Positions 2,189-60,749 of a DNA stretch of 64,000 bases are shown piece after piece (the stretch's first letter is position 1; every line of letters begins with the position of its first letter). The stretch comes from a virus (Duplodnaviria > Heunggongvirae > Uroviricota > Caudoviricetes). The DNA is taken from IMG/VR virus record IMGVR_UViG_3300018488_000300. The stretch is one strand, 5' to 3'. The notes under the pieces are model-generated. The model was not told the origin of the DNA, made no database searches, and worked only from the letters and a program-made list of their open reading frames with translations. A program made the position numbers and the translations under genes.

Positions 2189-3394
2189 TCAACAAGCACT
2201 TTCCATCCTTACAAAGGAAGTATTTTCATACTCTTTCTCATGAAAACCGTTGGTGTCAAGTGTCAACCATCGCAGTGTGCCACCATTATCAACACCATTC
2301 TCAAGGAAATAAACACGATTGCCTGAATTCATTGCTAATCTGCCAGGATTTCTGTGGCCAAAAACTTCGTACCAGTTTGGTGGCATTGAATCTGCAAAAG
2401 TTTTTGAGATACATGGAAGATCAATATACAGTCCTACTCCATGGATCATCTGGTGTCCAGAAATATAATCAATATGTTCTGGTATGGTCGCAAGACCTCC
2501 ATGTGTGTTAAGCACATTTTTTCCGTTGTGGCTATAAATAAAACATTCTTTTAGTTTCTGCCTATACAGCTTTCTAATTTCCTTTTTATTTAAACCATTA
2601 AGCTGTGGAAGCGTGTTTGTCAAGAACTCTTCTGAATATTCCTCTATTCCATTGCTCCAATTCCATATCCAATGCTCATGGTTTCCTTCACAAAGGACTA
2701 CATTCGGTTTGTTCTTGATTGATAGTAAGAATTTAAGAATCCTATCATTATGAGGTCCTTTATCTGTGTAGTCACCAAGGAAGATATAAAATTCATCTTT
2801 GCGTAAGTTCCCATTATCATTCAGTGCCCTTTTTAATACTTCATCACACCCATGGATATCTCCAATATGATGGATTTTCTTGTATCCTGATAAATCCACA
2901 GTTTTTTCATATATTAAGTTTAACTCGTCCGGCTTGATTACTTTTATTTTATCTGGCAGTGCTTCCTCTTTGAATTCATTGTAAGCATTTTCGACAACGC
3001 TGTCTGGAACCCTTTTTCTTGCAGAACGGTGAATATTTCTGAATTTTGCAATGCCGATTGGAACTGTTGTAAAATCAATAACATACAATTCATATCGGTA
3101 TTTCAAGGCTAAATCCTGATACTTCTGAATTTGTGATTTCTTGCTGTTCACACAATCAATCACAGTAAATTCTCCGTTCTTCATACGCTCTTCCAATATA
3201 CTGAATAGAGTATCATAAGCCTGTGCATTCGCCTTTTGACCAGTAGATTCTCGTCCATAGATTGTCTGTATCGGGCTTTGATATAACATCCTGATATTGT
3301 CAAATGATAAGGTGTATGGAACCAGTTTCTTGTCTTTAATCCATGTTGTTTTTCCTGCGCCAGGAGCTCCTCTTAAAACTAATACTTTACGCAT
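2189..3394 (-). CDS. Polynucleotide kinase-phosphatase-like protein: P-loop kinase fused to calcineurin-type metallophosphoesterase
   Basis: N-terminal Walker A VLVLRGAPGAGKTTW. C-terminal half has GDIHG, GDYTDKG and GNHE metallophosphoesterase motifs. Stop codon is TGA (2189-2191). Confidence 0.6.
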   Translation of the reverse strand: MRKVLVLRGAPGAGKTTWIKDKKLVPYTLSFDNIRMLYQSPIQTIYGRESTGQKANAQAYDTLFSILEERMKNGEFTVIDCVNSKKSQIQKYQDLALKYRYELYVIDFTTVPIGIAKFRNIHRSARKRVPDSVVENAYNEFKEEALPDKIKVIKPDELNLIYEKTVDLSGYKKIHHIGDIHGCDEVLKRALNDNGNLRKDEFYIFLGDYTDKGPHNDRILKFLLSIKNKPNVVLCEGNHEHWIWNWSNGIEEYSEEFLTNTLPQLNGLNKKEIRKLYRQKLKECFIYSHNGKNVLNTHGGLATIPEHIDYISGHQMIHGVGLYIDLPCISKTFADSMPPNWYEVFGHRNPGRLAMNSGNRVYFLENGVDNGGTLRWLTLDTNGFHEKEYENTSFVRMESAC

Positions 3395-3610
3395 ACGTTT
3401 ACCTCCACTCCTGCATATTTTCTATATTTGAAACAGGCCTCTCCTGTATTCAGTTTGCTGTTTGTGTATTGTGGCCGTTTTGGCCATAAGGTGATATTTC
3501 TGTTTATATTCATTCTTGTACCCTCCATTTTTCCCTTATATGCTTTAATATGGAATTTTAATCATATAAATAAAAAGAGATGTAACTTTGTAATTACACC
3601 TCTTAATAAC

Positions 3611-5346: not shown

Positions 5347-5913
5347 TTAGTTAAAAGTCTTAAAACCCTTCCAATATTGGAACATTACTTTTGCTATGAT
5401 TTTGTCTTCGTATACAAAATGATTATCCCAGTATCTCGAATCGAGAGAGTTGTTCCGGTTATCACCCATACAGAAATATGCTCCTTCAGGGACCTCAAAT
5501 TTCATATATTTAGTTGCCATCATAGGATCATTTAAATAGTCTTCATATATTGGATGTCCATTCACATACACATGCCCAGTTGACATGTTTAATTTTGATG
5601 TTTCTGCATCCATGTCCACATCCGGAATGATTTCAATTGTATCTCCTGGTGTCCCTATGATACGTTTTACATAGTAGACGGATTCATTATCAGGATATTT
5701 AAATATAACAATATCGCCTCGCTCAGGCATCGTTCCAAATTTATATGCCAAACGGTTTCCAATCAAGCGGCTCCCTGTCATGATAGTTGATTCCATTGAG
5801 CCAGTCGGTACGATTGCATTTGCAATTAAGAAATGCGTTATAAACCATGCTAATAAGATAGCTGGAATCACTGTTTTTATAAAATCAAAAAAATCTTGTT
5901 TAAATGAATTCAT
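5347..5913 (-). CDS. lepB: Signal peptidase I (S26 family)
   Basis: N-terminal membrane anchor, catalytic Ser box VPTGSME, box E GDNRNNSLDSRYW. Overlaps the upstream helicase gene by 1 nt, suggesting an operon. Confidence 0.8.
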   Translation of the reverse strand: MNSFKQDFFDFIKTVIPAILLAWFITHFLIANAIVPTGSMESTIMTGSRLIGNRLAYKFGTMPERGDIVIFKYPDNESVYYVKRIIGTPGDTIEIIPDVDMDAETSKLNMSTGHVYVNGHPIYEDYLNDPMMATKYMKFEVPEGAYFCMGDNRNNSLDSRYWDNHFVYEDKIIAKVMFQYWKGFKTFN

Positions 5914-17752: not shown

Positions 17753-18919
17753 TTATGAAATTTTATTAAAAAAATGAATGGCATCATCTAGATTTTCACA
17801 ACCTGCAATATGGCCTGATGGATGAATAAAAAACAAACCTTTACTAAAGGTTTCCAATTCCTCCCTATCTTTACCTCTTAATTCCTCTGGGAAGTACATC
17901 CTTCTGCATCCTTTTTTAGGATCAATTCGGTTTTTAATTTTCTCTCTCTCGCTCATCTCCAATAATAATACATTAATTCCTCTTTCTGATGGAAATATAA
18001 TCCCTTTGACATCATCATGATTCGATGATAATGAAGCGTTAGGTATATAGCGGTCAAACACTAACAGGTCTTTCCGTAAGGATTCCTGATAAATACGTTC
18101 ACATTCCACTCTTGCTGGGACAAGTGAGTTGATACTGTTAATGCGCTCTATAATGATATGCTCCAGAAGTTCAATTCTTTTTCTTCTTTTTAATACTGAT
18201 AATCCCAATATGAATGGTGATGTTTTATATTTCCCATATGTTTTATTTACCTGCGAAGTAAATGTATTTACAAATATATCATTATCTTCATCCATAAATA
18301 TTTCCTTGTAGTATAAATTCCATGCATTATTGACACTATCATAATGTATCCTGTTTTCGTTATGGTAATATTTTCTGTTTATATTTTCTAATGCGATTAA
18401 TATATCTACATTCATTGTTTTGCAGAATCTTGGAACAAATGTTGAATTACTAAAATGTTCAATTAATGCTTTTAAAACAGGATAAAATGTACTGACTGCT
18501 TTTGAAAAAGCCTCATCGGATGAAACTTCAGAATTCCAATTTGGGTTACAATATTCAATTGATGAGGTTAGCATATTTGTATTTGATGATGTATCACATT
18601 TATCTATCTCAGAAACAAATACATCGTCAAACAAATCGGCATTGCTTTTATTCATAAAAACAGTGCCATAATCATTCCACAATAGTCCAAACGCTGCATA
18701 AGTTTTCCCGTTGCTTCTTTTCTTTATTTCTCCATGGTGGTCATATGCTCCACCTCCAATATCATATACAATTCCTGTATATTTCTCTGGAACAACATTT
18801 AAGCGTTCATATGTAAACTTTGGATTTAACAACAATAGTAGACATGTAGATAAAACATCATCTGCATGGAAAGTTCCATTATGTGTAATTCCTTTATCGT
18901 ATATTTTAATATGGATCAT
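17753..18919 (-). CDS. MYG1/UPF0160 family metal-dependent hydrolase-like protein
   Basis: N-terminus ITHNGTFHADDVLSTCLLLLL...DIGGGAYDHHGE matches the MYG1 (GTFHCDE...YDHH) signature. Has a C-terminal extension. Confidence 0.5.
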   Translation of the reverse strand: MIHIKIYDKGITHNGTFHADDVLSTCLLLLLNPKFTYERLNVVPEKYTGIVYDIGGGAYDHHGEIKKRSNGKTYAAFGLLWNDYGTVFMNKSNADLFDDVFVSEIDKCDTSSNTNMLTSSIEYCNPNWNSEVSSDEAFSKAVSTFYPVLKALIEHFSNSTFVPRFCKTMNVDILIALENINRKYYHNENRIHYDSVNNAWNLYYKEIFMDEDNDIFVNTFTSQVNKTYGKYKTSPFILGLSVLKRRKRIELLEHIIIERINSINSLVPARVECERIYQESLRKDLLVFDRYIPNASLSSNHDDVKGIIFPSERGINVLLLEMSEREKIKNRIDPKKGCRRMYFPEELRGKDREELETFSKGLFFIHPSGHIAGCENLDDAIHFFNKIS

Positions 18920-25401: not shown

Positions 25402-26613
25402 TTATTCCAAAGCACATAATGCTTCATCAAATATTCTCTCTGGTTTATATTCATTCACTTTATCTAATACCATTTCAGGAACTCCATAATACGCACCAGC
25501 AATACTTCCGGCAATCGCGCCTATTGTGTCTGTATCACCTTTAAATGAAAGAACATTATTGATTGTTGATTCATATGAATCAGAATTATAAAAACATATA
25601 ACAGCGGCAGGTATAGAAAATTGGCATGTCGCATCCGATTTCATAGGAGTAATAGGATTTTTTATTTCATCTAAAGAAAATTCCGAAAAACCATAGACTC
25701 CTCTATAATGTTTCATCATATATTTGTAAATCTGTTCTTTACTGTATCCTTTTCTTGCCATCCAAATAGAGACTGCTGTAATAACAGCTCCCTTAATCCC
25801 TTCTGGGTGGTTGTGTGTAGCTGCTGCGCTAGCAACCGCATATAAAATTACATCTTTTATATCATCGAACCAGGCACCTATTGGTGACACACGCATTCCT
25901 GAACCATTTCCATAGCTGCCATATGGTGTATCATAATTATAAATAGCCCAATGATAAAAACCTGGTCCATATCCTTGCCCTGGAAATTCCAATGTATATT
26001 TCCTGTAGGCTTCTACAAATGGATTTTTAATGAACGGATATGTAGATTCCTGCTTATAATCATTTAAATTGAATTTTCTCTGTTCAAGCTCCAGAACAGA
26101 CTGTCTGATTACGGATGCCGTGGCACATGTTAGGACTGTATCATCTGTAAACATACTTCCTTCAATGACGCAATTATCGATTGTAAGATTTTCACGTTCA
26201 TCCGTGTTAAGTGTGAATTCATATTGGCTTCCAGCAATATCTCCAAATACTGTTCCGTATAAGATTTCTTTTACATATGGCTTTGCTGATTCTTCTGGAC
26301 ATCCATATGGAATATATTTAGAAATAAGAAATTTCATATCAATAATGTAAATTGAATTTTCCAATATTTTTTCAATATCACATTCTTTGATATTTCCTTT
26401 CAAGGATTCATCAATCACTAATTTTACACTGTCTGGTGATGCGCCTGAAATCAAAGCGTTTCTTGCTGCTTCCATTTCATATGGTTTAATTTGCGGATAA
26501 GCATAAGAGGTTGTATCGATTCCTAAATCCTTTCCTTTTTGTATTTCATCTAACTGCCAACCATTAAATTGCTTGTTGGAACATTTTTTCCTTTTAAATA
26601 TATCTAAGAACAT
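25402..26613 (-). CDS. ADP-ribosylglycohydrolase family protein (DraG/ARH-like) with N-terminal extension
   Basis: GTVFGDIAGSQYEF (GDxxG) early and C-terminal KGDTDTIGAIAGSIAGAYYG, the ARH signature. Confidence 0.6.
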   Translation of the reverse strand: MFLDIFKRKKCSNKQFNGWQLDEIQKGKDLGIDTTSYAYPQIKPYEMEAARNALISGASPDSVKLVIDESLKGNIKECDIEKILENSIYIIDMKFLISKYIPYGCPEESAKPYVKEILYGTVFGDIAGSQYEFTLNTDERENLTIDNCVIEGSMFTDDTVLTCATASVIRQSVLELEQRKFNLNDYKQESTYPFIKNPFVEAYRKYTLEFPGQGYGPGFYHWAIYNYDTPYGSYGNGSGMRVSPIGAWFDDIKDVILYAVASAAATHNHPEGIKGAVITAVSIWMARKGYSKEQIYKYMMKHYRGVYGFSEFSLDEIKNPITPMKSDATCQFSIPAAVICFYNSDSYESTINNVLSFKGDTDTIGAIAGSIAGAYYGVPEMVLDKVNEYKPERIFDEALCALE

Positions 26614-27156: not shown

Positions 27157-28700
27157 TGAAGTCTCACACGACTGAAGGCGCGTGCTTCTGTAAGCCTTTA
27201 GGACTTACTACATTATCCTGAATATAGCCTGAACTTAGTACTTAAAGAGCTAACTCTTTTAGTACCACATTTAGGTTAATTAGCGAGGATAAAGTACAGG
27301 TACTTCTCTTACTTAATTGAGGAACTTTTGCCTCAATCAGTAACCTATCCCTTTCGGGTAAGGATTTTATAATTTCTCGTATATAATATCGGGCTCCGAT
27401 ATTATAGGCGGCATTTAGGTCGGTATGATACTCTTTTCCTGTCTGGAATGTACAAAGGCTATAGTTGTTCTTATGCCTTTGTACAAATCCGGAGCCATCG
27501 AAGGCCAACACACTGGTATATTTCGGATTTACCCTTGAAATTCGGATTCCTTCTCTATGAGCCTTATGTGTTACCATAGCCTGAACGGCCTGCTTCCTCC
27601 ATAAATGAAGCCGCTGTCTCTTAGAACCTTGCTTCTTACCAACGAAGTGAAAAGCTTTAGATTTTCCCTTCATATCCAGATGTTCAAATATAATTACATC
27701 CACATGGTATTCCAAAGCACATTCTATAATTGCATTTGCTGTCATCTCTGAGATATGTCTGTTTGTATGATTTGTAAATATCCAGGTTTTCCTAGCCTTG
27801 TAATTTCCATGCTGCTGCTGTTTCTTGATACGGTTAATCTGATGATTCAGCCGGTCTTTTTCTATCGGATAGGATAAGACCCTCCTTCCAATGACAGTTC
27901 CGTCTGATAACATCGCTGTACAAGCTGCAGCATTGTTAATTCCAAGGTCTACTGACAGGATGATCCTGGTTTCAATTGGTTCCTCCGACAAAGTAACAGA
28001 TTCTTCATAAGAGAATCGTAAAGAAGTGGATTTACCTTTCAGCTCTAGCGCTGGAGAGCCTTCTTTTAATCCATTACAGTGATGTTTGATATAGTCTATA
28101 TCACTTTTTCTGAATGTTACTGGCAGCCACACCCAATCTTTTTGATGATAAATTTTTATTTCGGCAGAATAATCATTCAACCGGTTATAGGTGTTCTTTT
28201 TATAGAACACAGGCATGAGGTTTCGATTGAGCGTTAGTTTTGGTTTCTTTGTGGATTGATCCGACTTCTCCCAGTTGTTTAAAGCTGACTGATAAGAAGA
28301 GTACGATCCAATTGCAGATTGGATAACAGCTCTTCTTAAATAACTTGGAAACTTATAAAACGCAGAGTCAAAGTCATATTTAGGACTGGGATTTAGAATT
28401 GTCTTGTGGGTAAGTTTTTCTAATGCACCATTCTTCTGCTTCCCTGACAAAGAAACAAGATTCTCCCATTCAGAATCGAGGACCTGTATGAAGAACGTAA
28501 CTGCCTGTTGATATATCTTTACTGTATCGTTAAAAATCTGGTTGTAGTTTTTAATCTTAACTGCATAGGATGAAATGATCTTCATGCAGATCCTCCTTTC
28601 CCTACTAAATATTATAATGCAATTTTTGAATTTGTTAACCAGCTAACTCATCACTAAAGTAACGAGTATGCGCTGGTCTATTAATCAAAAATTCATCTAT
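27157..28700 (-). mobile_element. IS200/IS605-family tnpB-only element, copy A (inserted in the MTTase gene)
   Basis: Ends defined by alignment with the degraded copy at 51614..53125. Subterminal hairpin motif near the right end. No tnpA. Confidence 0.6.
27242..28585 (-). CDS. tnpB: TnpB/OrfB-like protein (RuvC-like nuclease), zinc-finger cysteines absent
   Basis: RuvC triad context ILSVDLGINNAA, FEHLDMKG, HTDLNAAYNIGARYY. The usual CxxC...CxxC segment is replaced by TSVLAFDGSG...SLCTFQTGKEYH. Confidence 0.7.
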   Translation of the reverse strand: MKIISSYAVKIKNYNQIFNDTVKIYQQAVTFFIQVLDSEWENLVSLSGKQKNGALEKLTHKTILNPSPKYDFDSAFYKFPSYLRRAVIQSAIGSYSSYQSALNNWEKSDQSTKKPKLTLNRNLMPVFYKKNTYNRLNDYSAEIKIYHQKDWVWLPVTFRKSDIDYIKHHCNGLKEGSPALELKGKSTSLRFSYEESVTLSEEPIETRIILSVDLGINNAAACTAMLSDGTVIGRRVLSYPIEKDRLNHQINRIKKQQQHGNYKARKTWIFTNHTNRHISEMTANAIIECALEYHVDVIIFEHLDMKGKSKAFHFVGKKQGSKRQRLHLWRKQAVQAMVTHKAHREGIRISRVNPKYTSVLAFDGSGFVQRHKNNYSLCTFQTGKEYHTDLNAAYNIGARYYIREIIKSLPERDRLLIEAKVPQLSKRSTCTLSSLINLNVVLKELAL

Positions 28701-29066: not shown

Positions 29067-30367
29067 TTATAGAAGTGAGAGATTCCTATTTCATCGAGTC
29101 TGCTTTGTAACAGCTGAATTAGTCACAAAGTCTTACAGGCTCTCTATGGGCAATCTGGGTCGTCCCAACCCTTCTTTTATTAAATAGTTACCAATCTTAA
29201 TCCTTCGGCTAAGATATTTATTGCGCTATTCTTGTCTCTGTTATGTCTGGTTCCACATTCAGGGCAAGTCCAGTTTCTAATACTTAAATCCTTAAGTTTC
29301 GGATTCTTATATACACAACTACTGCAGATCTGGCTGGACGAAAAGAAACGGCCCACCTTTACAATTTGCTTTCCATACCATTCGGCTTTATATGTAAGTT
29401 GTCTTACAAACTCAGACCAGGATACATCCGCTATGTTTCTGGATAATTTATGATTTTTCATCATACCGGAGACATTTAAGTCCTCGATGCAGATAATATC
29501 ATAATCTCTAATCATCTGAGTACTAAGCTTATGTAGGAAATCCTTTCGCTTATTCGATATCTTCTCCTGCTGCCTGGCTACTTTAATCCTGGCCTTGTGA
29601 TAACGGCTGCTGCCAATTGTTTTTCTTGACAGAGATCGTTGTAGTCTGGCCAGTTTCTTTAAGTCCTGCTGCAGATATTTCGGATTTTTGATAGATTCAG
29701 TTTCATCTGAAAAAATCAAAAAATCCTTTATCCCTAGATCACAGCCAACCGATTTGCCTGTTTTGGGTATGGATGTCACTTCTGCTTCTGTACAGCACAC
29801 AGATACATAATATTTACCGGAGGCTGTCTGACTTACAGTCGCTGACAAGATTCGGCCAGTAATTGGTCTGGATACTTTCGTCCTTACGTTGCCTAACTTT
29901 GGCAGTTTAATATGCTTTTCCAGAAGAGAAATATTCCCATTCGTGTATTTTGAGGTATAGGAATGCTGGTGCGTCTTCCTCGATTTAAACTTAGGAAATC
30001 CAGCTTTCGGCTGTTCAAAGAAATTCTTGAAGGCAGTATCCAGATTCTTTAAGGAGCTTTGAAGAGTTGTGGAGTCCACATCATTTAGCCACTCATATCC
30101 AGGCTGTTTCTTAAGCTTTGTTAAGTCAGCGCTGCATTTCGTATAGCTCAGTGTAGTTTTATCTTCCTCATAGGTTTTAATACGCTTATCCAGGTAATGA
30201 TTATATACAAATCGGACACATCCGAAAGTTTGAGTCAATATCTGCTTCTGTGATTTATTCGGATAGATGCGGTATTTATAGGACTTTTCCATAGCTGCTC
30301 CTTTCCTAGATTTTACATAGATATTATGGTCCGATTTTTATGATTTGACAACTAAATCGGTTAATTT
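29067..30367 (-). mobile_element. Second, unrelated IS200/IS605-family tnpB-only element (copy B) also inside the MTTase locus
   Basis: tnpB 29180..30292 is flanked by a stop-bounded MTTase fragment on one side and a possible MTTase N-terminal remnant (30368..30475, ...VVLGCQVTDLAIYLKN...) on the other. Boundaries approximate. Confidence 0.45.
29180..30292 (-). CDS. tnpB: TnpB (IS605 OrfB) RNA-guided-nuclease-family protein with intact zinc finger
   Basis: N-terminal OrfB_IS605 region [15 protein letters not shown]..., RuvC motifs GCDLGIKDF and [10 protein letters not shown]-terminal CSSCVYKN...[20 protein letters not shown]. Confidence 0.8.
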
Positions 30368-31220: not shown

Positions 31221-32765
31221 TTAGTCTTCCTTACTAGCTTCAACTACTTCTTTCGCTACCATTGCATTTGAAACTTCATCAGATTCAGCATTCTCAGGAA
31301 GACCAGAAATATTTACGTTCCTGGTTACCTTAGCATCATACGTATTGGCTTTCATAATTTCCGTGATATCCAATCCGGTTGTCTCCTTTACAGATTCAAT
31401 CGTCTTGGCTAACACACCAGGGACATAGGAACCCATGGAAGATACACCCGCTTCGCCATTACCACTGTCGATGATTGTTACCTTATCAATAGTAGACAAT
31501 GGTTCTGCGATCGCTTTTGCCATTTCGGGTAATGCCTGTACAATCATTTCCATCATAGCAGCCTGGCCATACTTCTTCATTGCTTCTGCTTTCTTTTCCA
31601 TGGCCTCAGCTTCGGCAAGGCCTTTCGCCTGAATAGCTGCTGCTTCTGCTTCACCCTTTGCTTTAATACCGGCAGCGCTCTGCTCCATTGCATAACGCTC
31701 CGCTTCCGCCTGTGCTTTCTTGGCAACTGCTTCCTGCTCCTGTTCATAACGCTTCGCTTCCGCCTCCTTCTGACGCTTAGTCAGGTTAGCAGCAGCGGCC
31801 TGCTCGATGGCGTAACGGTCGGCGTCTGCCCTTTTGTTGATTTCCGCTTCCAGTTTCTGCTGCTCAACCTCCACCTGCTGTCGGTTCAATTCTGCATCAC
31901 GTTCTGCTTTTGCGATCTGGGCATTGACGGTACGGATCTGAATTTCTTTATTCTGCTCCTGCTCCTGGATTTTATAGGCCGCGTCTGCTTCTGCTTTTTT
32001 AATGTCCGCCTGTTTCTTCAGTTCTGCCTGTTTGATAAACAAATCGGTATTTTTCTGAGCGATCGCTGTTTCTGCGGCAACACGGGCATCGTTTGCAGCT
32101 TGCTTAGCTTCTGATTCTGCGATTGCCACATCACGATCTGCCTGTGCCTTTGCGATAGAAGCATCTTTTTGAATCTTGGACATATTATCCTGACCTAATG
32201 CCGGGATCAATCCTCTTTCATCTTCAATTTTCTGGATGTTGCAGGAAATAATTTCAATACCCAAATTGTTCATGTCAATCTGAGCTTTCGCCTGAACTTC
32301 ATCACCGAATTTTTTTCGGTCGGTACATAAATCTCTCAGATTTTGTGTACCAATAATTTCACGCATATTGCCCTGAAGCGAATCGGTTAAGGCCATGCAA
32401 ATGTTTTCCTCATTCATATTCAGGAAGTTTTTCATTGCCAACTTAATACCCTCTTCATCGGTACGAATACGCACTTTTGCTACTGCGTCAATATCTACAC
32501 CGATGAAATCCTGGGTTGGGACGAACCCATTGGTTTTGATATCAATGGAGATCTGTTTCAGCAGAATCTCATCCTTGCGTTCCAGGTAAGGAATTTTGAT
32601 GCCTGCACATCCAATCAGGATTCTTGGTTTTCTTTTCAAACCAGAAATAATAAAAGCCTTGTCCGTCGGTGCTTTTACATACCCACTCGCTAAAATCCCA
32701 AGTAATACAATTACAACTAAAACAATCGGTAATATCTGTAAAATCGGTAAAATCAAATCTAACAT
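31221..32765 (-). CDS. floT: Flotillin-like protein (SPFH/band-7 domain, FloT/YuaG type)
   Basis: N-terminal TM segment, SPFH core, then a long Ala/Glu/Gln/Lys-rich coiled-coil (EA repeats) and a C-terminal tail, the same layout as Bacillus FloT (about 510 aa). Confidence 0.75.
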   Translation of the reverse strand: MLDLILPILQILPIVLVVIVLLGILASGYVKAPTDKAFIISGLKRKPRILIGCAGIKIPYLERKDEILLKQISIDIKTNGFVPTQDFIGVDIDAVAKVRIRTDEEGIKLAMKNFLNMNEENICMALTDSLQGNMREIIGTQNLRDLCTDRKKFGDEVQAKAQIDMNNLGIEIISCNIQKIEDERGLIPALGQDNMSKIQKDASIAKAQADRDVAIAESEAKQAANDARVAAETAIAQKNTDLFIKQAELKKQADIKKAEADAAYKIQEQEQNKEIQIRTVNAQIAKAERDAELNRQQVEVEQQKLEAEINKRADADRYAIEQAAAANLTKRQKEAEAKRYEQEQEAVAKKAQAEAERYAMEQSAAGIKAKGEAEAAAIQAKGLAEAEAMEKKAEAMKKYGQAAMMEMIVQALPEMAKAIAEPLSTIDKVTIIDSGNGEAGVSSMGSYVPGVLAKTIESVKETTGLDITEIMKANTYDAKVTRNVNISGLPENAESDEVSNAMVAKEVVEASKED

Positions 32766-35378: not shown

Positions 35379-36431
35379 ATGAATGTAGAATTAACAAATA
35401 GAATAATTAAAAAAATGGCGGTTCTAAAACAAAATATAGCAGATTCTATGAGTATATCTATATTGGAACCACATATTGATGGTAGTAAGATTCAAAGTGG
35501 AAATATAATTACAAACGAAGAGGCTAGAGAACTTTTAAAAACATATTCGGTTAATAACCATACCATCAATCCATATGTTTTTGATCAATGTATTCCTAAT
35601 ATTGATACTATTCATGCTATTGATTTACTACAGAATCCTTACTTGAAAAACATTGTATTAAAGCCACTATCGATTGGTGACTTAAAATTAGAGACAGCAT
35701 TTTATGCCAAAAACGAACTGGCCATTATAAATGAGCCTCTACAAACAGATGACCTTTTAAGGAAATTTCCGATTGGAATTTTTGACGATACCGCCTTTAC
35801 CTATGTACTAAAAAATAAAGATTTTGTATGGATGAGTATATGCCCAATGGAAATCAATACAATGTACAAACACATAAAATCAGCAAAAGGAAAAGTTTTA
35901 GTCTTTGGCGGAGGCTTGGCATATTTTCCATACATGATATCATTAAAAGAAAATGTATCTGAAATCACAATTATCGAATCGGATGAACGAATTTTTCATA
36001 TCATCAAGGATATTATTTTGCCTCAGTTTAAAAATCATAAGACCCAGATTATTTTGTGTGAGGCTGAGCAATATATTAAAAATAATAGTCTTTCGCACTA
36101 CGATACAGTCTTTTTTGATATCTGGGAAAATAATATATCCGGAGCTGAATACATGAAAAAATTTGCTAAATATGAACTTAAATATCCAGAAATGCAGTTC
36201 CAATATTGGCTTGAAGATTCTATTCTGGACTCGTTCATCATTAATATTGCAGAGTATTTTAGTGCTAAATTAGGTACCGATGAATACCAGGAGTTTTTTT
36301 GTAGGGTGGCACCAGACATATGGGACTATATGGAATCCATAGGAGATACAATCAAAAGACCTAGTCAGCTTGACTACTATCTGACAAGAGATTTTGCAAA
36401 AAAATATGTTTTAGGAGTCATTGATACATAA
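35379..36431 (+). CDS. Spermidine-synthase-like / class I SAM-dependent methyltransferase-fold protein
   Basis: GKVLVFGGGLAYFPYMISLKENVSEITIIESDERIF resembles the PABS/MTase motif I-II block (GxVLxxGGGxG...E..xxE.D). Confidence 0.4.
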   Translation: MNVELTNRIIKKMAVLKQNIADSMSISILEPHIDGSKIQSGNIITNEEARELLKTYSVNNHTINPYVFDQCIPNIDTIHAIDLLQNPYLKNIVLKPLSIGDLKLETAFYAKNELAIINEPLQTDDLLRKFPIGIFDDTAFTYVLKNKDFVWMSICPMEINTMYKHIKSAKGKVLVFGGGLAYFPYMISLKENVSEITIIESDERIFHIIKDIILPQFKNHKTQIILCEAEQYIKNNSLSHYDTVFFDIWENNISGAEYMKKFAKYELKYPEMQFQYWLEDSILDSFIINIAEYFSAKLGTDEYQEFFCRVAPDIWDYMESIGDTIKRPSQLDYYLTRDFAKKYVLGVIDT

Positions 36432-38331: not shown

Positions 38332-38860
38332 ATTAAAATTCCGATAATGATATCAATCAAAGTTTTCATTTATTTTTCTCCTTTTTTCTTATTAAAAATA
38401 GTATGTATTTCTTTGTGTATTGATAGGAAATAGAAAAACAGGGATAACCCTGTTTAATATTTAATATTTATATCCATTGTTTTTTCTGTTTTTCCAGCTC
38501 TCACAAGTTCGATATTTTTCTAGTTCCTCCTATAAAAAAAGTTTCACCTGTGTGAATATTATATCTGTAGTATAGCAATGACTTATTTTCAGTTTTGTAC
38601 ATATCCTACCTCTTTATGCTGCCTCAACAGTATTCTCCGATTTTTCCTCCCATATTAAGTTATCATCAGAATCTAAGAATTGATCATAAAAATTTTCAAT
38701 ACATTCACATTCATTTGGATCATGTTTAATTCCATTACATGTCTCGTAAAGAGAACATCTTTCACAAACATTCTTCATACATTCTCATCCTTTCAATTTT
38801 ATAACTATATAATGTGTATTTCCTTTAAATGATAAAAAGTATCCGAAGATACTCTTTATA

Positions 38861-40027
38861 CTATTCTTTCACACTAGCTTTAAAATTATAAATTGGTCTA
38901 ATTACATTTATTATTTCTACTGTATCCCTTATGTTTTCTACAATCTCCTCCTTATTTTCTTTTGCTTGACTTCTTGACATCAAACGGCCTGCTCCATGTG
39001 GCGCAGAATAATTCCAATCCTCATTTCCTTTTCCCATACAAAGTAAAGAACCGTCTCGCATATTCATTGGAATTAAAATTTTTTCTCCTTTCCTTGCTGA
39101 TACGGCACCTTTTCTAAGAATCATACGCTCTGTGTCAATATAGTTGTGGACTGTCTCAAATTCTTCTACTGAGTGAAGTTTCATTTCCTTTAAAATTGTA
39201 TTTGCAATAGCTTTCCGATTCCAGAAGGCATATTCCTGCACAATTTCCATATCATGGATATAATCAGCTAACAACTCATTTTCACAGTATGCTAGTTCAT
39301 ATGGAACAGATGGTAATTTACTTAGATCAGGTCTTTCCCACTTCCATGCTGCTAATTGATTGCGAAGTTCTTTTTCCCTTCCACTTTTTTTCATTTCTTC
39401 GCTGAATTCCTGCCTAGCCTTCTTTTCAAGTTCTTTGTAATAGGTGCCAACACAATTTAATTCTTCATAGGCCCTATTTTGATAGTACTCAGCAACATCT
39501 TTACCAAGCCTACGGCTTCCAGTATGAACAACCAGATACAAGTTACCATCCTCATCTTTGTCTACTTCAATGAAATGATTTCCTCCTCCAAGTGTTCCAA
39601 TACTGCAAGCAGCAATGTCTTCACTTACTTTGCAATTATTTTTTCCTACGCAGCGAAGGCGTTCAATATCAAATCGTCTTGCATATTGAAGTTGATTGAA
39701 TTTGTCATGTATACTTCCACCTGAAGGAATGTTCTTACGAATTATGCTATCTAATTTTGGTAATTCAATCCATTTTTCTTTGAGTCTCACTGTACGCATA
39801 CCACAACCTATATCAACGCCAACTAAATTGGGAATAACTTTATCTGTAATGGTCATTGTTGTACCTATCACACATCCAGCTCCAGCATGCGCATCCGGCA
39901 TAATCCTTATTATTGAGTCTTGTAAACTCTCTTGATTTAGCAGCGAAATTAATTGCCTTATACAATCCTCATCTACATCGTCCGCAAAGATTTTGCACTT
40001 ATTATATTTTCCTTTTAACTCGAACAC
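38861..40027 (-). CDS. rtcB: RNA ligase RtcB (3'-phosphate/5'-OH RNA ligase)
   Basis: MPDAHAGAGCVIG, GGGNHFIE, HTGSRRLG and SAPHGAGR are the RtcB metal/GTP-binding signature blocks. 388 aa. Confidence 0.85.
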   Translation of the reverse strand: MFELKGKYNKCKIFADDVDEDCIRQLISLLNQESLQDSIIRIMPDAHAGAGCVIGTTMTITDKVIPNLVGVDIGCGMRTVRLKEKWIELPKLDSIIRKNIPSGGSIHDKFNQLQYARRFDIERLRCVGKNNCKVSEDIAACSIGTLGGGNHFIEVDKDEDGNLYLVVHTGSRRLGKDVAEYYQNRAYEELNCVGTYYKELEKKARQEFSEEMKKSGREKELRNQLAAWKWERPDLSKLPSVPYELAYCENELLADYIHDMEIVQEYAFWNRKAIANTILKEMKLHSVEEFETVHNYIDTERMILRKGAVSARKGEKILIPMNMRDGSLLCMGKGNEDWNYSAPHGAGRLMSRSQAKENKEEIVENIRDTVEIINVIRPIYNFKASVKE

Positions 40028-47655: not shown

Positions 47656-48069
47656 TCAGGTCAAGTATTCATGTGCATAACCTACATCAGTTGTATAGTA
47701 TATATTTTTGATTCCTAAATCTTTTATTACATTCATGCATGCCGCACATGGCCTTGCAATACCAAAAGGCTGGTCATTTCTAATTCTATAGATAAATAGC
47801 TTAACCTTTTTAAAATCAATATCTTGGTTTTTTATGCTACTGATGCACATGATTTCAGCATGAATCTTTGGCAACAGATTAGCTGATATCACATTATCAT
47901 TCTGCCGGTATCGGTTATAGTGATACTGCATTGGATGTGTCTTCTCTGAATTGAAACCTGAACCTATCATTCTGCCTTTATAAATGGCAATACATCCAAC
48001 ATGGACTCTGTTGAATTCAGAGTTCATGGCCACTCTCTTTGTCATCTCAAAATATTTCTCTATCATCAT
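47656..48069 (-). CDS. dCMP/cytidine deaminase family zinc enzyme
   Basis: Zinc-binding motifs HAEIMCI and PCAACMNVI (H-A-E ... P-C-x-x-C). Confidence 0.7.
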   Translation of the reverse strand: MMIEKYFEMTKRVAMNSEFNRVHVGCIAIYKGRMIGSGFNSEKTHPMQYHYNRYRQNDNVISANLLPKIHAEIMCISSIKNQDIDFKKVKLFIYRIRNDQPFGIARPCAACMNVIKDLGIKNIYYTTDVGYAHEYLT

Positions 48070-48119: not shown

Positions 48120-48147
48120 CAAAACAAAAAGAGAGGTTTCCCTCTCT
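48120..48147 (-). terminator. Intrinsic terminator after hpf
   Basis: agagaggtttccctctct hairpin with a T-rich tract. Confidence 0.5.
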
Positions 48148-48665
48148 TACATATTTGCTGCAAGCAGCCCGTATCCAGCCTCTTTCCTCCTATATACGAC
48201 ACCTACCCTACCATCCATCACATTCATAAATAAATGAAAGTCATGATCTAAAGCCTCCAGTTCCTCAACCGCCTCTTCAGGAGTCATCATCTGTAAATCA
48301 AACTGTTTTTCTTTCATAATAAGCGGTTTGATTTCTGCTTCTGGCTCTGTTTCTAAAAGCATAACTGGCATACGTTTCTTATCTAATTTCTTTTCTTTCT
48401 GTTTTCTAAGCTGTCTGTTGAGAACTTCTTCTACCAAATCAATTGCTTCATAAAGATCCTTACTTCTGCGTTCTGCTCGGATTTCCTTATTCTTTCCAGT
48501 TGGAATGGCTACCTCAATGATTTGATCATCTTTTACAGTTCGGACAACTACCCTTACCGGCGTGTTTTCCTTTAAATATTTATCACATTTAGAAAGCTTT
48601 TCGGTAATAGCCTCCCTCATACCATCCGTAATTGTAACAGTTTTTCCAATAATAGTAAGTTTCAT
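48147..48665 (-). CDS. hpf: Ribosome hibernation promoting factor, long form (RaiA/YfiA family)
   Basis: MKLTIIGKTVTITDGMREAITEKLSKCDKYL matches the HPF N-terminal consensus. 172 aa with the C-terminal dimerisation extension typical of Firmicutes. Confidence 0.8.
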   Translation of the reverse strand: MKLTIIGKTVTITDGMREAITEKLSKCDKYLKENTPVRVVVRTVKDDQIIEVAIPTGKNKEIRAERRSKDLYEAIDLVEEVLNRQLRKQKEKKLDKKRMPVMLLETEPEAEIKPLIMKEKQFDLQMMTPEEAVEELEALDHDFHLFMNVMDGRVGVVYRRKEAGYGLLAANM

Positions 48666-48888: not shown

Positions 48889-49485
48889 ATGGGATATACG
48901 AATATGACTACAATGCCATATGTAATAGAAAGAACAGCTGCTGGAGAAAGATCATATGATATTTTTTCAAGATTACTTAATGACAGAATCATCATGTTAA
49001 CTGGAGAAGTTTGTGATGAAATGGCCGCATCCATCACTTCTCAGCTTCTATTTTTGGATTCTGTTGATCCTGGTAAAGATATTTATTTATACATTAACAG
49101 TCCAGGTGGGTCTGTAACTGCTGGGTTGGCTATTTATGATACAATGAAATATATCAAAAGTGATGTTTCCACAATCTGTATGGGAATGGCTGCTAGCATG
49201 GGAGCATTCCTGCTTGCTGGTGGTACAAAAGGCAAACGTATGATTATGCCGAATGCGGAGGTAATGATTCATCAGCCAAGTGGAGGTGCAAAGGGCCAGG
49301 CAACCGAAATCTTAATCGTCGCTGACCAGATTAAAAAAACCAAAGAACGTTTAAACAGAATTTTATCTGAGAATACCGGGAAGCCCTATGCCACAGTATG
49401 TGAAGATACAGAAAGAGACAACTATCTGACTGCTGATGAAGCATTAGCATATGGTATTGTAGATACAATCGTATCAACAAAATAA
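48889..49485 (+). CDS. clpP: ATP-dependent Clp protease proteolytic subunit ClpP
   Basis: [19 protein letters not shown]..., catalytic Ser context [26 protein letters not shown] block, 198 aa. RBS ggagatataattATG. Confidence 0.9.
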
Positions 49486-49652: not shown

Positions 49653-50975
49653 TTAAACATTATAGACTCCTTTCATCTGGAATAATGACTTTTTGCTATT
49701 CTTTTTCTTATAGTAACTCTGAACCCTTACACTTTGGGCAGCTGTTTTAATTTTTTTGTATGTTTCTATGATTACATTAACGCAGATTAGGATAGATGTA
49801 CCGCCAATACTCAAAACACCTATTCCAAAGATATTACACACCAAAGATGCTCCCAGAACAATGCACAACATCAAACCAGTCCCTAGCACCATCATTTCAA
49901 ACGCATTTGTATGTAAAAATTCTGATGTTGCTTTTCCTGGCCTGATTCCTGGAATTGTAGCACCTTGAGCTTTCAATCTTTGTGCAATTTCAGTGGCATT
50001 AAATGCTATGTCTAAATAAAAATTTGCAAAGAAGTAGGCAAGCAGTATATATACAATGCAACCTAATGTATATTTCAGACTACCTGTTATAAACCAATTA
50101 TTGGGTGATAGGTATTTTGAAATTGTCAATAGTGTTTGATTGGAGCTGAAAGTTGCTGCAATGTTAACCATGCTTATAATACTTCCAGTAAAAATGACCG
50201 GCATCACATTACAGATATTCAATGATATGGGCAAATCTTTTCCTTGCTCATTATTTATGCTCTTTCTCGAAAATCTTATCTGTATTCTTTTTTCAGATAA
50301 ATTCAAATAGATACATCCAGCCAGGAAAGTCATGAATACCATTATTGCTAATGTTAATTTAAAAACAACTGTAACTGGTTTACTATTATACGAAAAACGT
50401 TCATAAATAACAAATAAATCGTTTGGGAATGTTGATAGTATATTAAAGAGCAGAATATAGGATATTCCATTACCCAGTTCCAGTTTTGTTATCTTCTCTC
50501 CCATAATAATCAAAATCGATGCTCCTAATGTCCATATAGAAGTTGCAATAAGGACCATCCACCACGTATATGGGTTCAGCAACCCTCTTGAGCCAAAGCC
50601 TATGGCCATAAAAAGTGATTGAATGAAACTAATTATGATACCCGTTATATTTGTTATTTTTTGAATCTTTTCTTGTCCTGTTTTTCCGTCTTTGCTTAAA
50701 TCTTCTAGCTTTGGGATTATGACTGTCATTAACTGGACGATGATAGAGGCAGTGATATATGGGCTTATGCTTAGTGCAAAAAGTGACATCTTAGAAAATG
50801 AATTACCAGTAATCATATTTAGGAATTGGAATCCAGAGCCAGAAATAATCGATTTCATATAATCGCCATTAATACCTGGTATCGGTATCAGGCTACCGAT
50901 ACGAACAAATATGATGAACCCTAAAATCAACAACAGCTTATTCCTTGTCTCTTTATTTTTCATTAATATAATCAT
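49653..50975 (-). CDS. secY: SecY-family preprotein translocase subunit (divergent, stand-alone paralog)
   Basis: RIGSLIPIPGIN (TM1), ALSISPYITASIIVQLM (TM2 plug region), GATIPGIRPGKATSEF (C4 loop). Ten predicted TM segments. Not embedded in a ribosomal protein operon. Confidence 0.7.
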   Translation of the reverse strand: MIILMKNKETRNKLLLILGFIIFVRIGSLIPIPGINGDYMKSIISGSGFQFLNMITGNSFSKMSLFALSISPYITASIIVQLMTVIIPKLEDLSKDGKTGQEKIQKITNITGIIISFIQSLFMAIGFGSRGLLNPYTWWMVLIATSIWTLGASILIIMGEKITKLELGNGISYILLFNILSTFPNDLFVIYERFSYNSKPVTVVFKLTLAIMVFMTFLAGCIYLNLSEKRIQIRFSRKSINNEQGKDLPISLNICNVMPVIFTGSIISMVNIAATFSSNQTLLTISKYLSPNNWFITGSLKYTLGCIVYILLAYFFANFYLDIAFNATEIAQRLKAQGATIPGIRPGKATSEFLHTNAFEMMVLGTGLMLCIVLGASLVCNIFGIGVLSIGGTSILICVNVIIETYKKIKTAAQSVRVQSYYKKKNSKKSLFQMKGVYNV

Positions 50976-51613: not shown

Positions 51614-53125
51614 TGAAGTCTCACATGACTAAAAGTCACGTGTTTCTGTAAACCTTTAGAGCTTACTGCATTATCCTGAATACAGCCTGAACTTAGCACT
51701 TAAAGAGCTAACTCTTTTAATACCACATTCAGGTTAATTAACGAGGATAAAGTACAGGTACTTCTCCTAGATAATTCAGGTACTTTTGCCTGAATTTCTA
51801 ACCTATCCCTCTCGGGTAAGGATTTTATAATTTCTCTGATATAATATCGCGCTCCGATATTATAAGCAGCATTTAGGTCTGTATGATATTCTTTTCCAGT
51901 CTGGAACGTGCAAAGGCTATAATTATTTTTACATCTTTGCACAAATCCGGAACCATCGAAGGCCAACACACTTGTATACTTCGGATTTACCCTAGATATC
52001 CGGATTCCTTCTCTATGAGCCTTATGTGTTACCATACCTGGATGGCCTGCTTCCTCCATAAATGAAGCCGATGTCTCTTAGAACCTTGCTTCTTACCTTT
52101 CATATCCAGATGTTCAAATACAATTACATATACATGGTATTCCAAAGCACATTCTATAATTGCATTTGCTGTCATCTCTGAGATATGTCTGTTTGTATGA
52201 TTTGTAAATATCCAGGCTTTCCTGGCCTTATAATTACCATGCTGCTGTTGCTTTTTGATACGGTTAATCTGATGATTCAGCCGGTCTTTTTCTGTTGGAT
52301 AGGAAATAATTGTCCTTCCGATGACAGTTCCGTCTGATAATATCGCCGTACATGCTGCTGCATTATTAATTCCAAGGTCAACTGACAGGATGATTCTGGT
52401 TTCAATTGGTTCCTCCGACAAAATTACTGATTTTTCATAAGAGAACCGTAAAGATGCTGACTTACCCTTTATTTCAAGGACCGGAGAGCCTTCTTTTAAG
52501 TTTGAGCAGTGACGTTTAATATAATCTACATCACTTTTTCTCAACGTTACAGAAATCCATACCCAATCCTTTCAATGAAAGATTTTTATTTCAGCGGAAT
52601 AATCACTCAACCGGTTATAGGCGTTCTTTTTATAGAACACCGGCATGACGTTACGGTTAATCGATAGTCTGGGTTTCTTTGTGGATTGATCCGACTTCTC
52701 CCAGTTACTTAAGGCCGACTGATAGGAAGAATACGCTCCAATTGCTGACTGGATAGCAGCTCTTCTTAAGTAACTTGGAAACTTATAAAATACAGAATCA
52801 AAATCATATTGAGGACTGGGATTTAGAATTGTTCTGTGTGTGAGTTTCTCCAATACACCATTCTTCTGCTTTCCAGGCAAAGAAACAAGATTCTCCCATT
52901 CAGAATCGAGGACCTGTATGAAGAATGTAACTGCCTGTTGATATAGTTTGATCGTATCGTTAAAAATGTGGTTGTAGTGTTTAATCTTAACTTCATAGGA
53001 TGAAATGATCTTCATACAGTCCTCCTTTCTCTACTGAATATTATAATGTAATTTTTTTGATTTGTTAACCAGCTAACTCATCACTAAAGTAACGAGTATG
53101 CGCTGATTTTTTAATCAAAAAGTAC
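51614..53125 (-). mobile_element. Degraded third copy of the copy-A-type IS200/IS605 tnpB-only element
   Basis: Both ends align with 27157..28700 (the shared right-end block gaagtctcaca...cctgaatatagcctgaacttag and the left-end block ...ttgttaaccagctaactcatcactaaagtaacgagtatgcgctg...ttaatcaaaaa). Confidence 0.6.
51700..53015 (-). pseudogene. tnpB: tnpB pseudogene (split into ORFs 51700..52059, 52029..52544, 52572..53015)
   Basis: The three ORFs are collinear with, and about 90% identical in protein to, the intact copy-A TnpB, with a deletion removing the segment around the Glu motif. Confidence 0.65.
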
Positions 53126-59726: not shown

Positions 59727-59800
59727 GGTGACCGACGGGAGTTGAACCCGCAAAATGGCGGAGCCACAATCCGCTGCTGTACCAATTGAGCCACGGCCAC
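59727..59800 (-). tRNA. tRNA-His (anticodon GUG) with encoded G-1
   Basis: Anticodon arm GCGGA-TTGTGGC-TCCGC, 8-bp acceptor with an extra 5' G and C73, T-arm GCGGG-TTCAACT-CCCGT. Confidence 0.65.
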
Positions 59801-59802
59801 AG

Positions 59803-59874
59803 TTACGATGATGGGAATCGAACCCATATTGTAGGTTTAGGAAACCTATGTTCTATCCGTTGAACTACACCGTA
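59803..59874 (-). tRNA. tRNA-Arg (anticodon CCU)
   Basis: Acceptor TACGGTG/CATCGTA, D-arm GTTC-AACGGATA-GAAC, anticodon arm TAGGT-TTCCTAA-ACCTA, T-arm ATGGG-TTCGATT-CCCAT. Confidence 0.65.
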
Positions 59875-59875
59875 A

Positions 59876-59949
59876 TATCAGTAGCTGGAATCGAACCAGC
59901 GGCCTCCATGGTATGAGTCTGGCGCTCTTGCCTGCTGAGCTATACTGAC
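59876..59949 (-). tRNA. tRNA-Met-like (anticodon CAU) with weak anticodon stem
   Basis: Acceptor GTCAGTA/TACTGAT, D-arm GCTC-AGCAGGCAAG-AGC, loop CTCATAC but only 3 of 5 stem pairs, T-arm GCTGG-TTCGATT-CCAGC. Confidence 0.4.
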
Positions 59950-59960
59950 ATGAATGAATA

Positions 59961-60010
59961 AATTTAGCTCCGGTTATGGGCCGGATGCTCTAACCAACTA
60001 TATGGTTTAA
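59961..60010 (-). pseudogene. 5' half of a tRNA (acceptor-D-anticodon arms, anticodon CAU) with no T-arm
   Basis: Reverse complement reads ...ATAGTTGGTTAGAGC-A-TCCGG-CCCATAA-CCGGA-GCTAAATT, then runs directly into the 5' end of the next tRNA. No T-arm follows. Confidence 0.35.
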
Positions 60011-60081
60011 AGCAAATGAAGGGAATCGAACCCTCAACTCTGCTATGGCAAAGCAGCATTTTTCCGTTAAACTACATCTGC
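60011..60081 (-). tRNA. tRNA-Gly (anticodon GCC)
   Basis: Acceptor GCAGATG/CATTTGC with U73, anticodon arm CTGCT-TTGCCAT-AGCAG, T-arm GAGGG-TTCGATT-CCCTT. Confidence 0.6.
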
Positions 60082-60744: not shown

Positions 60745-60749
60745 ATTTC

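Follow-up and report, generated by a model that had tools for sequence, protein, structure and literature searches.

A ligase-less kinase-phosphoesterase and a separately encoded RtcB on a tRNA-rich, phage-like element of gut Clostridia

We analysed a 64,000-nucleotide stretch of DNA (hereafter the window) from the IMG/VR virus record IMGVR_UViG_3300018488_000300, which encodes a 401-amino-acid (aa) protein with the hallmarks of an RNA end-healing enzyme and, on the same element, an RtcB RNA ligase and two large tRNA arrays. Judged from its sequence, the protein is a CthPnkp-type P-loop polynucleotide kinase fused to a calcineurin-type metallophosphoesterase, and it lacks the RNA ligase domain that its homologues in cultured phages carry. 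The interpretation that we favour, with a probability of roughly 55%, is that it represents a ligase-less offshoot of a phage heal-and-seal family in elements of gut Clostridia, that it heals ends for an ATP-dependent ligase, and that RtcB serves a separate route, such that the two enzymes would form parallel layers rather than a sequential pair. The gene has the following features:

2189..3394, minus strand: predicted two-domain end-healing protein, 401 aa, ATG start (Pfam, NCBIfam, PHROG 8238), no ligase domain
2966..3385, minus strand: kinase domain, residues 4-143 (Pfam AAA_33, E 4.6e-13, above gathering score)
2291..2878, minus strand: metallophosphoesterase domain, residues 173-368 (Pfam Metallophos, E 5.8e-16, above gathering score)
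2759..2761, minus strand: codon for Lys212, equivalent to CthPnkp Arg237 and lambda phosphatase Arg53 (family alignment)
3575..3604, minus strand: terminator-like hairpin with a 13-bp stem and a T run, separating the kinase-phosphatase gene from the 551-aa gene upstream of it (consensus scan only)

A sequence-only reading of the window had proposed a Pnkp-like P-loop kinase joined to a calcineurin-type phosphoesterase at this locus, and both parts of that proposal held, with two Pfam domains above their gathering scores and a kinase that matched CthPnkp from end to end. A profile built from 29 homologues aligned the whole kinase domain to the CthPnkp kinase (PDB 4gp7/4jst, E 9e-13), and the 60 PDB sequence matches listed included no kinase other than that of CthPnkp. 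When the AlphaFold model of the 401-aa protein (predicted local distance difference test score, pLDDT, of 92) was searched with Foldseek, the CthPnkp kinase ranked first (4gp6/4jt2), with a template-modelling (TM) score, normalised to the target, of 0.74-0.75 for this predicted structure, and T4 Pnk was the sole other kinase in the list. Sequence identity to CthPnkp is about 22% in the kinase and 18% in the phosphatase. The phosphatase fold was matched by lambda phosphatase (1g5b, TM 0.72), by the CthPnkp phosphatase (4j6o, TM 0.58-0.64) and about equally well by PP5-type enzymes. Since all three match, the fold alone cannot separate an RNA-end phosphatase from a protein phosphatase; indeed, the CthPnkp phosphatase, too, is a binuclear metallophosphoesterase that resembles lambda phosphatase (PMC3675462). 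A comparison with the CthPnkp, T4 Pnk and lambda phosphatase families, which the sequence-only reading had put forward as a check, thus singled out CthPnkp for the kinase but did not discriminate for the phosphatase.

The kinase P-loop spans G9-T16 (GAPGAGKT) and includes K15/T16, D32 and R35 correspond to Asp38/Arg41 of the CthPnkp kinase (CthPnk), and the lid residues R119/R123/R126 correspond to its Arg116/120/123. Every residue reported as essential or important in CthPnk (Lys21/Ser22, Asp38, Arg41 and the lid arginines Arg116/120/123; PMC3902929) has an equivalent in the window protein. In the phosphoesterase, the residues located by motif are D179 and H181 (GDIHG), D208 (GDYTDKG), N238 and H239 (GNHE), H298 and H347. 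All seven are invariant in the family alignment, and their counterparts in CthPnkp are the metal ligands Asp187, His189, Asp233, Asn263, His323 and His376 and the phosphate-binding His264.

The top NCBIfam match was bacterial Pnkp (TIGR04075), with protein residues 5-276 aligned to profile positions 11-297 of 851 (E 2.4e-19). The score of 69 bits falls far under the family cutoff of 750, because the C-terminal two-thirds of the model have no counterpart in the 401-aa protein. Membership in bacterial Pnkp was rejected on account of this sub-threshold score, the lack of a ligase domain and of a Hen1 neighbour, and the non-conservation of Arg237. The top PHROG was 8238, labelled 'RNA ligase' (E 6.1e-100), in which residues 1-396 of the protein cover profile positions 1-396 of 737; the protein is a truncated-architecture member of this phage fusion family.

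The full-length architecture is seen in homologues from cultured phages (SPbetaL8, Brochothrix A9 gp147 and Staphylococcus SA11 gp182), which are 721-760 aa long. Their extra C-terminal ~300 aa form a complete T4 Rnl1-type ligase domain with a KxNG motif (PF09511 RNA_lig_T4_1, E 1e-43, whole profile). The window protein is homologous over all of its 401 aa, with 33-40% identity to the cultured-phage proteins and 43-49% to metagenomic ones. In a search of viral contigs for the ligase domain, in which the best 80 of 387 matches were examined, the kinase-phosphatase lay directly upstream of the ligase domain at 79 of the 80 loci, the exception having no upstream sequence. The family is thus ancestrally a three-activity heal-and-seal enzyme, and because its members carry a fused Rnl1-type ligase it belongs in RNA repair rather than in protein phosphorylation. 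By analogy, the fused Rnl1 of the relatives provides the strongest argument that the window protein would work on RNA ends.

Database names do not mirror the kinase-phosphatase-ligase architecture of the family: the three-domain phage proteins are labelled 'RNA ligase', 'hypothetical protein', 'putative serine/threonine protein phosphatase', 'metallophosphoesterase' or 'nucleotide 2-deoxyribosyltransferase'. As far as our literature searches reached, we found no biochemical characterisation of kinase-phosphatase-Rnl1 fusion proteins. At three of the IMG/VR ligase-domain loci (L130, L133 and L139), the phosphatase part lies on the strand opposite the adjacent ligase domain, which suggests a local inversion or a misassembly in that lineage.

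The absence of the ligase domain was followed beyond the gene itself. On the 235,748-bp contig ena:ERZ27272485:k141_5020, the window occupies positions 59,688-123,687 in reverse complement, and together with 7.8 kb past its low end and 5.6 kb past its high end (loci L004 and L089, the element's own contig beyond the window) about 77 kb of this contig was examined; a sister viral contig was examined as locus L005. Searches with 12 Rnl1-type domains (tblastn) returned nothing in the window (E<=0.01), in L004 or in L005, and ligase-domain similarity was also absent from L089 and from the relatives' loci L092, L175, L178 and L189. Pfam, PHROG and NCBIfam scans of about 50 open reading frames (ORFs) of the window detected no Rnl1, Rnl2, Hen1, Tpt1, archease or RtcA, and the sister contig was not among the best 80 of 387 ligase-domain matches. 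The closest 20 homologue clusters (52-88% identity) are all 388-430 aa long. Since these clusters are uniformly short and the same gene order recurs in relatives, the ligase-less form is not a truncation artefact.

This order comprises a primase-like (zinc-ribbon) protein, a sigma factor, a RecD2-like helicase, a signal peptidase, a protein of ~550 aa, the kinase-phosphatase, small ORFs and a topoisomerase. The ligase-less gene holds the same place in the sister contig (91% identity), in Lacrimispora amygdalina (L175, 77%) and in Enterocloster aldenensis (L178), as well as in the metagenomic relatives L092 and L189, with identity down to 54%. The neighbouring 134-, 235- and 551-aa proteins gave no methyltransferase match. 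A 350-aa protein encoded at 35379..36431 was considered as a Hen1-like methylase and discarded, as its weak Rossmann-type signal resembles aminopropyltransferases. A promoter scan was uninformative, with 19 sites observed and 19.0 expected.

The sequence-only reading had further cast RtcB, encoded on the same element as the tRNA arrays, as the sealing ligase that matches the kinase-phosphatase. The co-location was confirmed (PF01139 and PHROG 1075 for RtcB, and 30 tRNAs by ARAGORN), with the tRNAs, RtcB and the kinase-phosphatase all on one strand of one contig:

38861..40027, minus strand: RtcB RNA ligase, 388 aa (PF01139 E 2.2e-53, 182.5 bits against a cutoff of 27; PHROG 1075 E 5e-118)
43661..45066, minus strand: tRNA array 1, 13 genes (ARAGORN), 3.6 kb upstream of RtcB on the same strand
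59727..62535, minus strand: tRNA array 2, 17 genes plus 2 Rfam-only (ARAGORN, Rfam)

The proposed match between the two enzymes did not survive, as their end chemistries are opposed. RtcB joins a 3'-phosphate (3'-P) or a 2',3'-cyclic phosphate directly to a 5'-OH, whereas the ATP-dependent ligases Rnl1 and Rnl2 need 5'-phosphate (5'-P) and 3'-OH ends, which kinases and phosphoesterases prepare for them (PMC7824862). Because healing gives 5'-P and 3'-OH (or 2'-P) ends, the healed products are not substrates for RtcB, and the natural partner of the module is the fused Rnl1 that is missing here. In addition, a distance of 35 kb separates the two genes, each of which belongs to its own terminator-bounded unit. 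Ten RtcB peptides, at least one of which is contained in each of the 15 nearest RtcB clusters checked, failed to recover RtcB on the 233-kb sister contig, where the kinase-phosphatase is 91% identical. Clustered at 90% identity, the kinase-phosphatase falls in a group of 44 members and RtcB in a group of one.

In the scheme that we favour, the kinase-phosphatase would convert 5'-OH to 5'-P and open 2',3'-cyclic phosphates, and the resulting ends would fit an ATP-dependent ligase, supplied by the rest of the genome or by the host, and not RtcB. RtcB would act as an independent one-step route in which a cyclic phosphate or 3'-P is sealed to a 5'-OH. From the separate units and the opposed end chemistry, we infer that the kinase-phosphatase, RtcB and at least 30 tRNA genes are parallel layers that would keep translation RNAs functional under nuclease attack, with the presumed substrate of the healing enzyme being RNA rather than DNA and its presumed role one of counter-defence.

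A further feature of the phosphoesterase bears on what it would leave behind. At the position of CthPnkp Arg237, the window protein carries Lys212, so that its motif reads GDYTDKG instead of the GDxxDRG of CthPnkp and of the family consensus. Lysine was seen only in proteins without a ligase domain, namely the window protein, the nearest clusters P0001-P0008 (59-88% identity), P0037 and P0079, while arginine was present in all 31 proteins of at least 600 aa (classed as three-domain) and in 78 of the 79 ligase-linked viral copies among the best 80 of 387 matches, counts that are not phylogenetically independent and perhaps reflect three events. In CthPnkp, Arg237 contacts the phosphate and is essential for the phosphomonoesterase; the R237K change raises the Km for 2',3'-cyclic AMP from 18 to 100 mM and the kcat from 536 to 1570 per min, and it abolishes the Mn-dependent monoesterase but keeps the cyclic phosphodiesterase (PMC3675462, PMC2190708). 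With the monoesterase abolished, the R237K reaction is therefore limited to one step. The CthPnkp cyclic phosphodiesterase cuts the P-O3' bond and leaves a 2'-P (PMC2190708). Similarly, the diesterase-only mutant H189D yields 2'-nucleoside monophosphates from cyclic nucleotides and a 3'-OH,2'-PO4 end on tRNA, and the authors of the CthPnkp work point out that an altered healing outcome redirects sealing to ligases of other end specificity (PMC3675462, PMC2190708). By analogy, across a distance of ~18-22% identity, Lys212 might have the same effect in the window protein.

Several observations weigh against the favoured interpretation. The phosphatase step may end differently because of Lys212. 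The ~77 kb examined yielded no ATP-dependent RNA ligase, Hen1 or Tpt1, so no sealing partner was seen. The genes around the kinase-phosphatase belong to replication (RecD2-like helicase, primase-like protein, topoisomerase), which makes DNA ends a possible substrate, and the ~77 kb read contained no virion genes, a point that bears on the phage identity of the element. Co-occurrence also provides counter-evidence, since both genes are present on the 56-kb contig SRR5262939_85, 18 kb apart, and probably also on an 89.7-kb contig, and the 77 RtcB contigs listed include not one of the 79 ligase-fused viral contigs (taken from the best 80 of 387 matches), which for two limited samples is no more than suggestive. 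This complementary pattern of fused ligase and RtcB could mean a functional link, and a non-negligible possibility is that sealing passed to RtcB upon loss of the ligase, while the kinase-phosphatase was retained for a different task. The model of the sequence-only reading, in which the kinase-phosphatase heals tRNA ends and RtcB then seals them in one two-step pathway like that of T4 Pnkp and Rnl1, draws on these same patterns and on the presence of both genes with tRNA arrays on one element. Set against it, the kinase and the phosphatase remove exactly the groups that RtcB needs (PMC7824862), the 2'-P product of a CthPnkp-type enzyme is likewise no substrate for RtcB (PMC2190708), and the genes occupy distant units, with RtcB apparently missing from the sister genome; we consider it very improbable. 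We would assign more weight, although it is still unlikely, to the idea that the lysine clade (the window protein, P0001-P0008 and a few others) is a reprogrammed healer that lost Rnl1 and then exchanged arginine for lysine. Such an enzyme would phosphorylate the 5'-OH and open the cyclic phosphate without removing it, and the resulting 5'-P and 3'-OH/2'-P ends would either feed a 2'-P-tolerant ligase together with a Tpt1-like step or divert broken RNA from RtcB- and Rnl-type sealing, in which case the apparent mutual exclusion of fused ligase and RtcB on viral contigs would be a real division of labour.

Other explanations dispense with RNA sealing altogether. Processing of DNA ends by a 3'-phosphatase/5'-kinase, as in mammalian PNKP, for the replication, recombination or repair of the element and with no role for tRNA, would suit the constant placing of the gene among replication-type neighbours (RecD2-like helicase, sigma factor, primase-like zinc-ribbon protein and topoisomerase), the location of the Brochothrix phage A9 homologue between DNA polymerase/NAD-salvage genes and SSB/UvsX, and the crystallisation of CthPnk with DNA oligonucleotide acceptors (PMC3902929). 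It is nevertheless rather unlikely, given that most relatives have the module fused to an Rnl1-type RNA ligase and that the window protein retains His239, the equivalent of CthPnkp His264, a determinant of 2',3'-cyclic nucleotide phosphodiesterase activity (PMC2190708). The enzyme might also alter ends without preparing them for sealing, either by marking cleaved RNA with a 5'-P for 5'-P-dependent decay or by destroying cyclic-phosphate signals or toxic nucleotides. The retention of active sites in relatives of 52-100% identity that have lost the ligase speaks for this, as do the phosphodiesterase-only outcome that Lys212 predicts and the phage phosphodiesterases that Iyer et al. discuss in connection with cyclic-phosphate species (PMC7824862); a kinase of the polynucleotide kinase type and fused-ligase relatives, which argue for an ancestral repair role, make it an improbable account. 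The least probable reading is a Ser/Thr protein phosphatase or Ap4A hydrolase (PrpE/ApaH type) fused to an unrelated ATPase and without a nucleic-acid substrate. RefSeq and GenBank do name close homologues 'serine/threonine protein phosphatase', and matches to PP1, PP2A, PP5 and lambda phosphatase rank at least as high as that to the CthPnkp phosphatase, but such matches do not discriminate, the CthPnkp enzyme being lambda-phosphatase-like (PMC3675462). Moreover, the protein scores far below the cutoffs of the ApaH-type (39 bits against 176), PrpE (26 against 340) and PrpA/B models (26-29 against about 330), so that the greater closeness to PrpE-type or other protein phosphatases that would have undone the Pnkp assignment was not seen, and the domain is fused to a polynucleotide-kinase-type domain that matches CthPnkp, in a family fused to an RNA ligase.

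The RtcB protein itself has a full set of catalytic residues. The metal-binding and GMP-accepting positions D72/C75 (GVDIGCG), N150/H151 (GGGNHF), H168 (HTGSR) and H344 (HGAGR, the guanylylated His) align to those of Pyrococcus horikoshii RtcB, and the top NCBIfam RtcB models all scored under their own cutoffs. It is 67-80% identical to metagenomic relatives, and searches of cultured phages returned 677 records (Bacillus, Listeria, Mycobacterium and Clostridioides) with up to 50% identity. The sequence-only reading had allowed that RtcB might sit in a chromosomal rtcBA context in relatives; instead, the relatives are found on viral or phage-like contigs and phages, not in chromosomal rtcBA operons. 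The window ORFs scanned and the loci of the relatives contained neither RtcA nor RtcR, and no archease lies nearby. Viral contigs bearing RtcB numbered at least 77, the number of loci listed. The surroundings of the gene are as follows:

40056..40955, minus strand: R2K-clade ATP-grasp protein (PF18299 E 2e-15, PHROG 7313), 29 bp upstream of RtcB
41059..41529, minus strand: histidine-phosphatase superfamily (branch 1) protein, 156 aa, with a homologue near RtcB in L091 and L188
41554..42261, minus strand: nucleoside-hydrolase-fold protein, 235 aa, first gene of the RtcB unit (model pLDDT 91; Foldseek match to 6zk1, a plant nucleoside hydrolase, E 1.7e-6)
42337..42360, minus strand: terminator-like hairpin at the upstream edge of the RtcB unit
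38436..38455, minus strand: terminator-like hairpin about 400 nt downstream of RtcB

The hairpins bracket a four-gene unit that runs from the nucleoside-hydrolase-fold protein through the His-phosphatase and the R2K ATP-grasp protein to RtcB. The company that RtcB keeps is variable, with the full trio in L188, the hydrolase-fold gene only in L093 and the His-phosphatase only in L091, and the kinase-phosphatase is near RtcB in none of these three loci. No relatives of the R2K ATP-grasp protein were found in the viral-contig search. The 235-aa protein is compact, with an LDxDVDD cluster that is invariant at its N terminus, and its gene immediately precedes RtcB in L093 and L094; the protein was considered as an RtcB cofactor or a Hen1-like methylase and set aside, as it shows a nucleoside-hydrolase fold. 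A 282-kb relative (L093) likewise has the Band-7 gene and the 350-aa gene (35379..36431 in the window) in the vicinity of RtcB.

All 30 tRNA genes called by ARAGORN lie on the minus strand, and Rfam adds two more at 60671..60743 and 62133..62209. The two programs disagree at five loci, two being Rfam-only and three ARAGORN-only. Three of the calls are long, namely Lys-TTT (82 nt, 44490..44571), Gln-TTG (87 nt, 44818..44904) and Ile-TAT (89 nt, 61657..61745), and ARAGORN called none for Ser, Thr or Tyr. Isoacceptors present in duplicate are Lys-TTT, Glu-TTC, Asp-GTC, Asn-GTT and Ile-GAT; since these correspond to amino acids that AT-rich coding favours, codon supply suffices as an explanation. 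Among the 77 viral loci listed, 21 have tRNA genes no more than 10 kb from RtcB and 7 have arrays of at least eight beside it; the linkage of RtcB to tRNA genes thus recurs in a minority of loci.

With respect to the element as a whole, the 233,248-bp sister contig in IMG/VR is syntenic and circularly permuted relative to it, and this permutation between two assemblies is consistent with a complete genome, circular or terminally redundant, of about 234 kb. Near-identical proteins occur in assemblies of E. aldenensis and E. citroniae, and Lacrimispora amygdalina has proteins of 77% identity, making Enterocloster and Lacrimispora (Lachnospiraceae; human-gut Clostridia) the likely hosts. The GC content is ~33%, and we consider these genomes to be a family of roughly 234-282-kb, ~33% GC elements of Lachnospiraceae, listed as viral and probably jumbo phages. 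Their nature as phages is not proven; it is based on the IMG/VR cataloguing, the circular permutation between two assemblies and PHROG matches. Megablast of the window against phages and plasmids gave 0 nucleotide matches.

The E. aldenensis contig with the syntenic region (QSGP01000005.1 of GCA_003467385.1, L178) measures 472,371 bp, almost exactly 2 x 236 kb, and other contigs with near-identical copies span 311-562 kb; such sizes could mean that the element has integrated into a larger replicon, that concatemers were assembled or that larger relatives exist. The element encodes its own SecY (49653..50975, minus), signal peptidase I (5347..5913, minus), ClpP (48889..49485, plus) and a ribosome hibernation factor (48147..48665, minus). 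SecA is encoded just past the high end of the window (L089, 370-2736), and in a relative a SecE-like 49-aa ORF adjoins SecY (L093, 1201-1350). A tblastn search with SecY against 50,697 phage records returned matches of ~30% identity only, several on records that are very short or lack annotation and one on a genome record of Salmonella enterica, and a Sec translocon set looks unusual on a phage-like element. TnpB/IS605 OrfB-type sequences amount to three full-length genes plus fragments (27242..28585, 29180..30292, 57972..59216 and 51700..52544, all minus), with no TnpA among the window ORFs scanned. Also encoded, all on the minus strand, are an ADP-ribosylglycohydrolase (DraG/Tri1-like; 25402..26613), a MYG1-family protein (17753..18919), a dCMP/cytidine deaminase (47656..48069), a flotillin/Band-7 protein (31221..32765) and TelA (54570..55787). 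Small GIY-YIG and HNH_3/NUMOD4 homing-endonuclease-like ORFs lie near tRNA arrays on the element (L089, 8167-8304) and in a relative (L188, 19631-20055); ORFs of this sort are typical of large phages.

Comparison with known systems places the kinase-phosphatase closest to, and sets it apart from, the PHROG 8238 fusions (Brochothrix A9 gp147, Staphylococcus SA11 gp182 and SPbeta-like proteins), which have the same kinase and phosphatase with the same catalytic motifs but carry the ~300-aa PF09511 domain and the arginine of GDxxDRG, neither of which the window protein has. CthPnkp shares the order of kinase and binuclear metallophosphoesterase, the kinase fold with its essential residues and the metal ligands; unlike the window protein, it has a C-terminal ligase, a Hen1 operon partner and Arg237. 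The proposed logic of T4 Pnkp and Rnl1 against PrrC is the same, in that a phage 5'-kinase and a 3'-end phosphatase restore ligatable tRNA ends. However, the T4 phosphatase is of the DxDxT (HAD) type and not a metallophosphoesterase (PMC3592404), and T4 supplies Rnl1 itself, while the ~77 kb examined of this element yielded no Rnl. A precedent for a ligase-less kinase-phosphatase with a separately encoded ligase is the Pnkp1-Rnl-Hen1 system of Capnocytophaga (PMC4411300). There, Rnl is in the same operon and Hen1 is required, and we rejected Pnkp1 as an architectural match because it is T4-like, with a phosphatase of a different superfamily (PMC4411300). Phage RtcB proteins (PHROG 1075; Bacillus phages Bcp1 and BM15, Clostridioides phage phiCD211) share the full catalytic motifs, with 45-50% identity between the window protein and those of cultured Firmicute phages. 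In contrast to the E. coli RtcBA operon, the window RtcB has no RtcA, RtcR or archease nearby, and its neighbours are the nucleoside-hydrolase-fold, His-phosphatase and R2K proteins.

Jumbo phages are known to combine tRNA arrays with RtcB and/or Rnl1/Rnl2, polynucleotide kinases and phosphoesterases (calcineurin-like in a few), a repertoire interpreted as a counter-defence to effectors that cleave tRNA (Iyer et al. 2021, PMC7824862). Phages that answer tRNA-cleaving defences with RNA repair genes next to tRNA arrays are therefore already known, and the 'different enzyme combination' pointed out by the sequence-only reading is not a new kind of arrangement, as RtcB, Rnl1 and Rnl2 have been described in any mix in jumbo phages, a few of which have calcineurin-like phosphatases (PMC7824862). 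In those phages, kinases and phosphoesterases are 'generally congruent' with ATP-grasp (Rnl) ligases (PMC7824862), whereas the healing module described here comes without a detectable Rnl in the ~77 kb.

Taken together, our results indicate that a kinase-phosphatase of this type and RtcB should not be annotated as a heal-and-seal pair, since the ends that they handle are mutually exclusive. They also show that one branch of a large phage family of kinase-phosphatase-Rnl1 fusions, conserved in Enterocloster/Lacrimispora elements, is ligase-less. The main new lead is that this conserved ligase-less clade bears Lys212: with this natural Arg-to-Lys exchange, at the position where the same mutation makes CthPnkp diesterase-only, end healing may have been rewired in nature.

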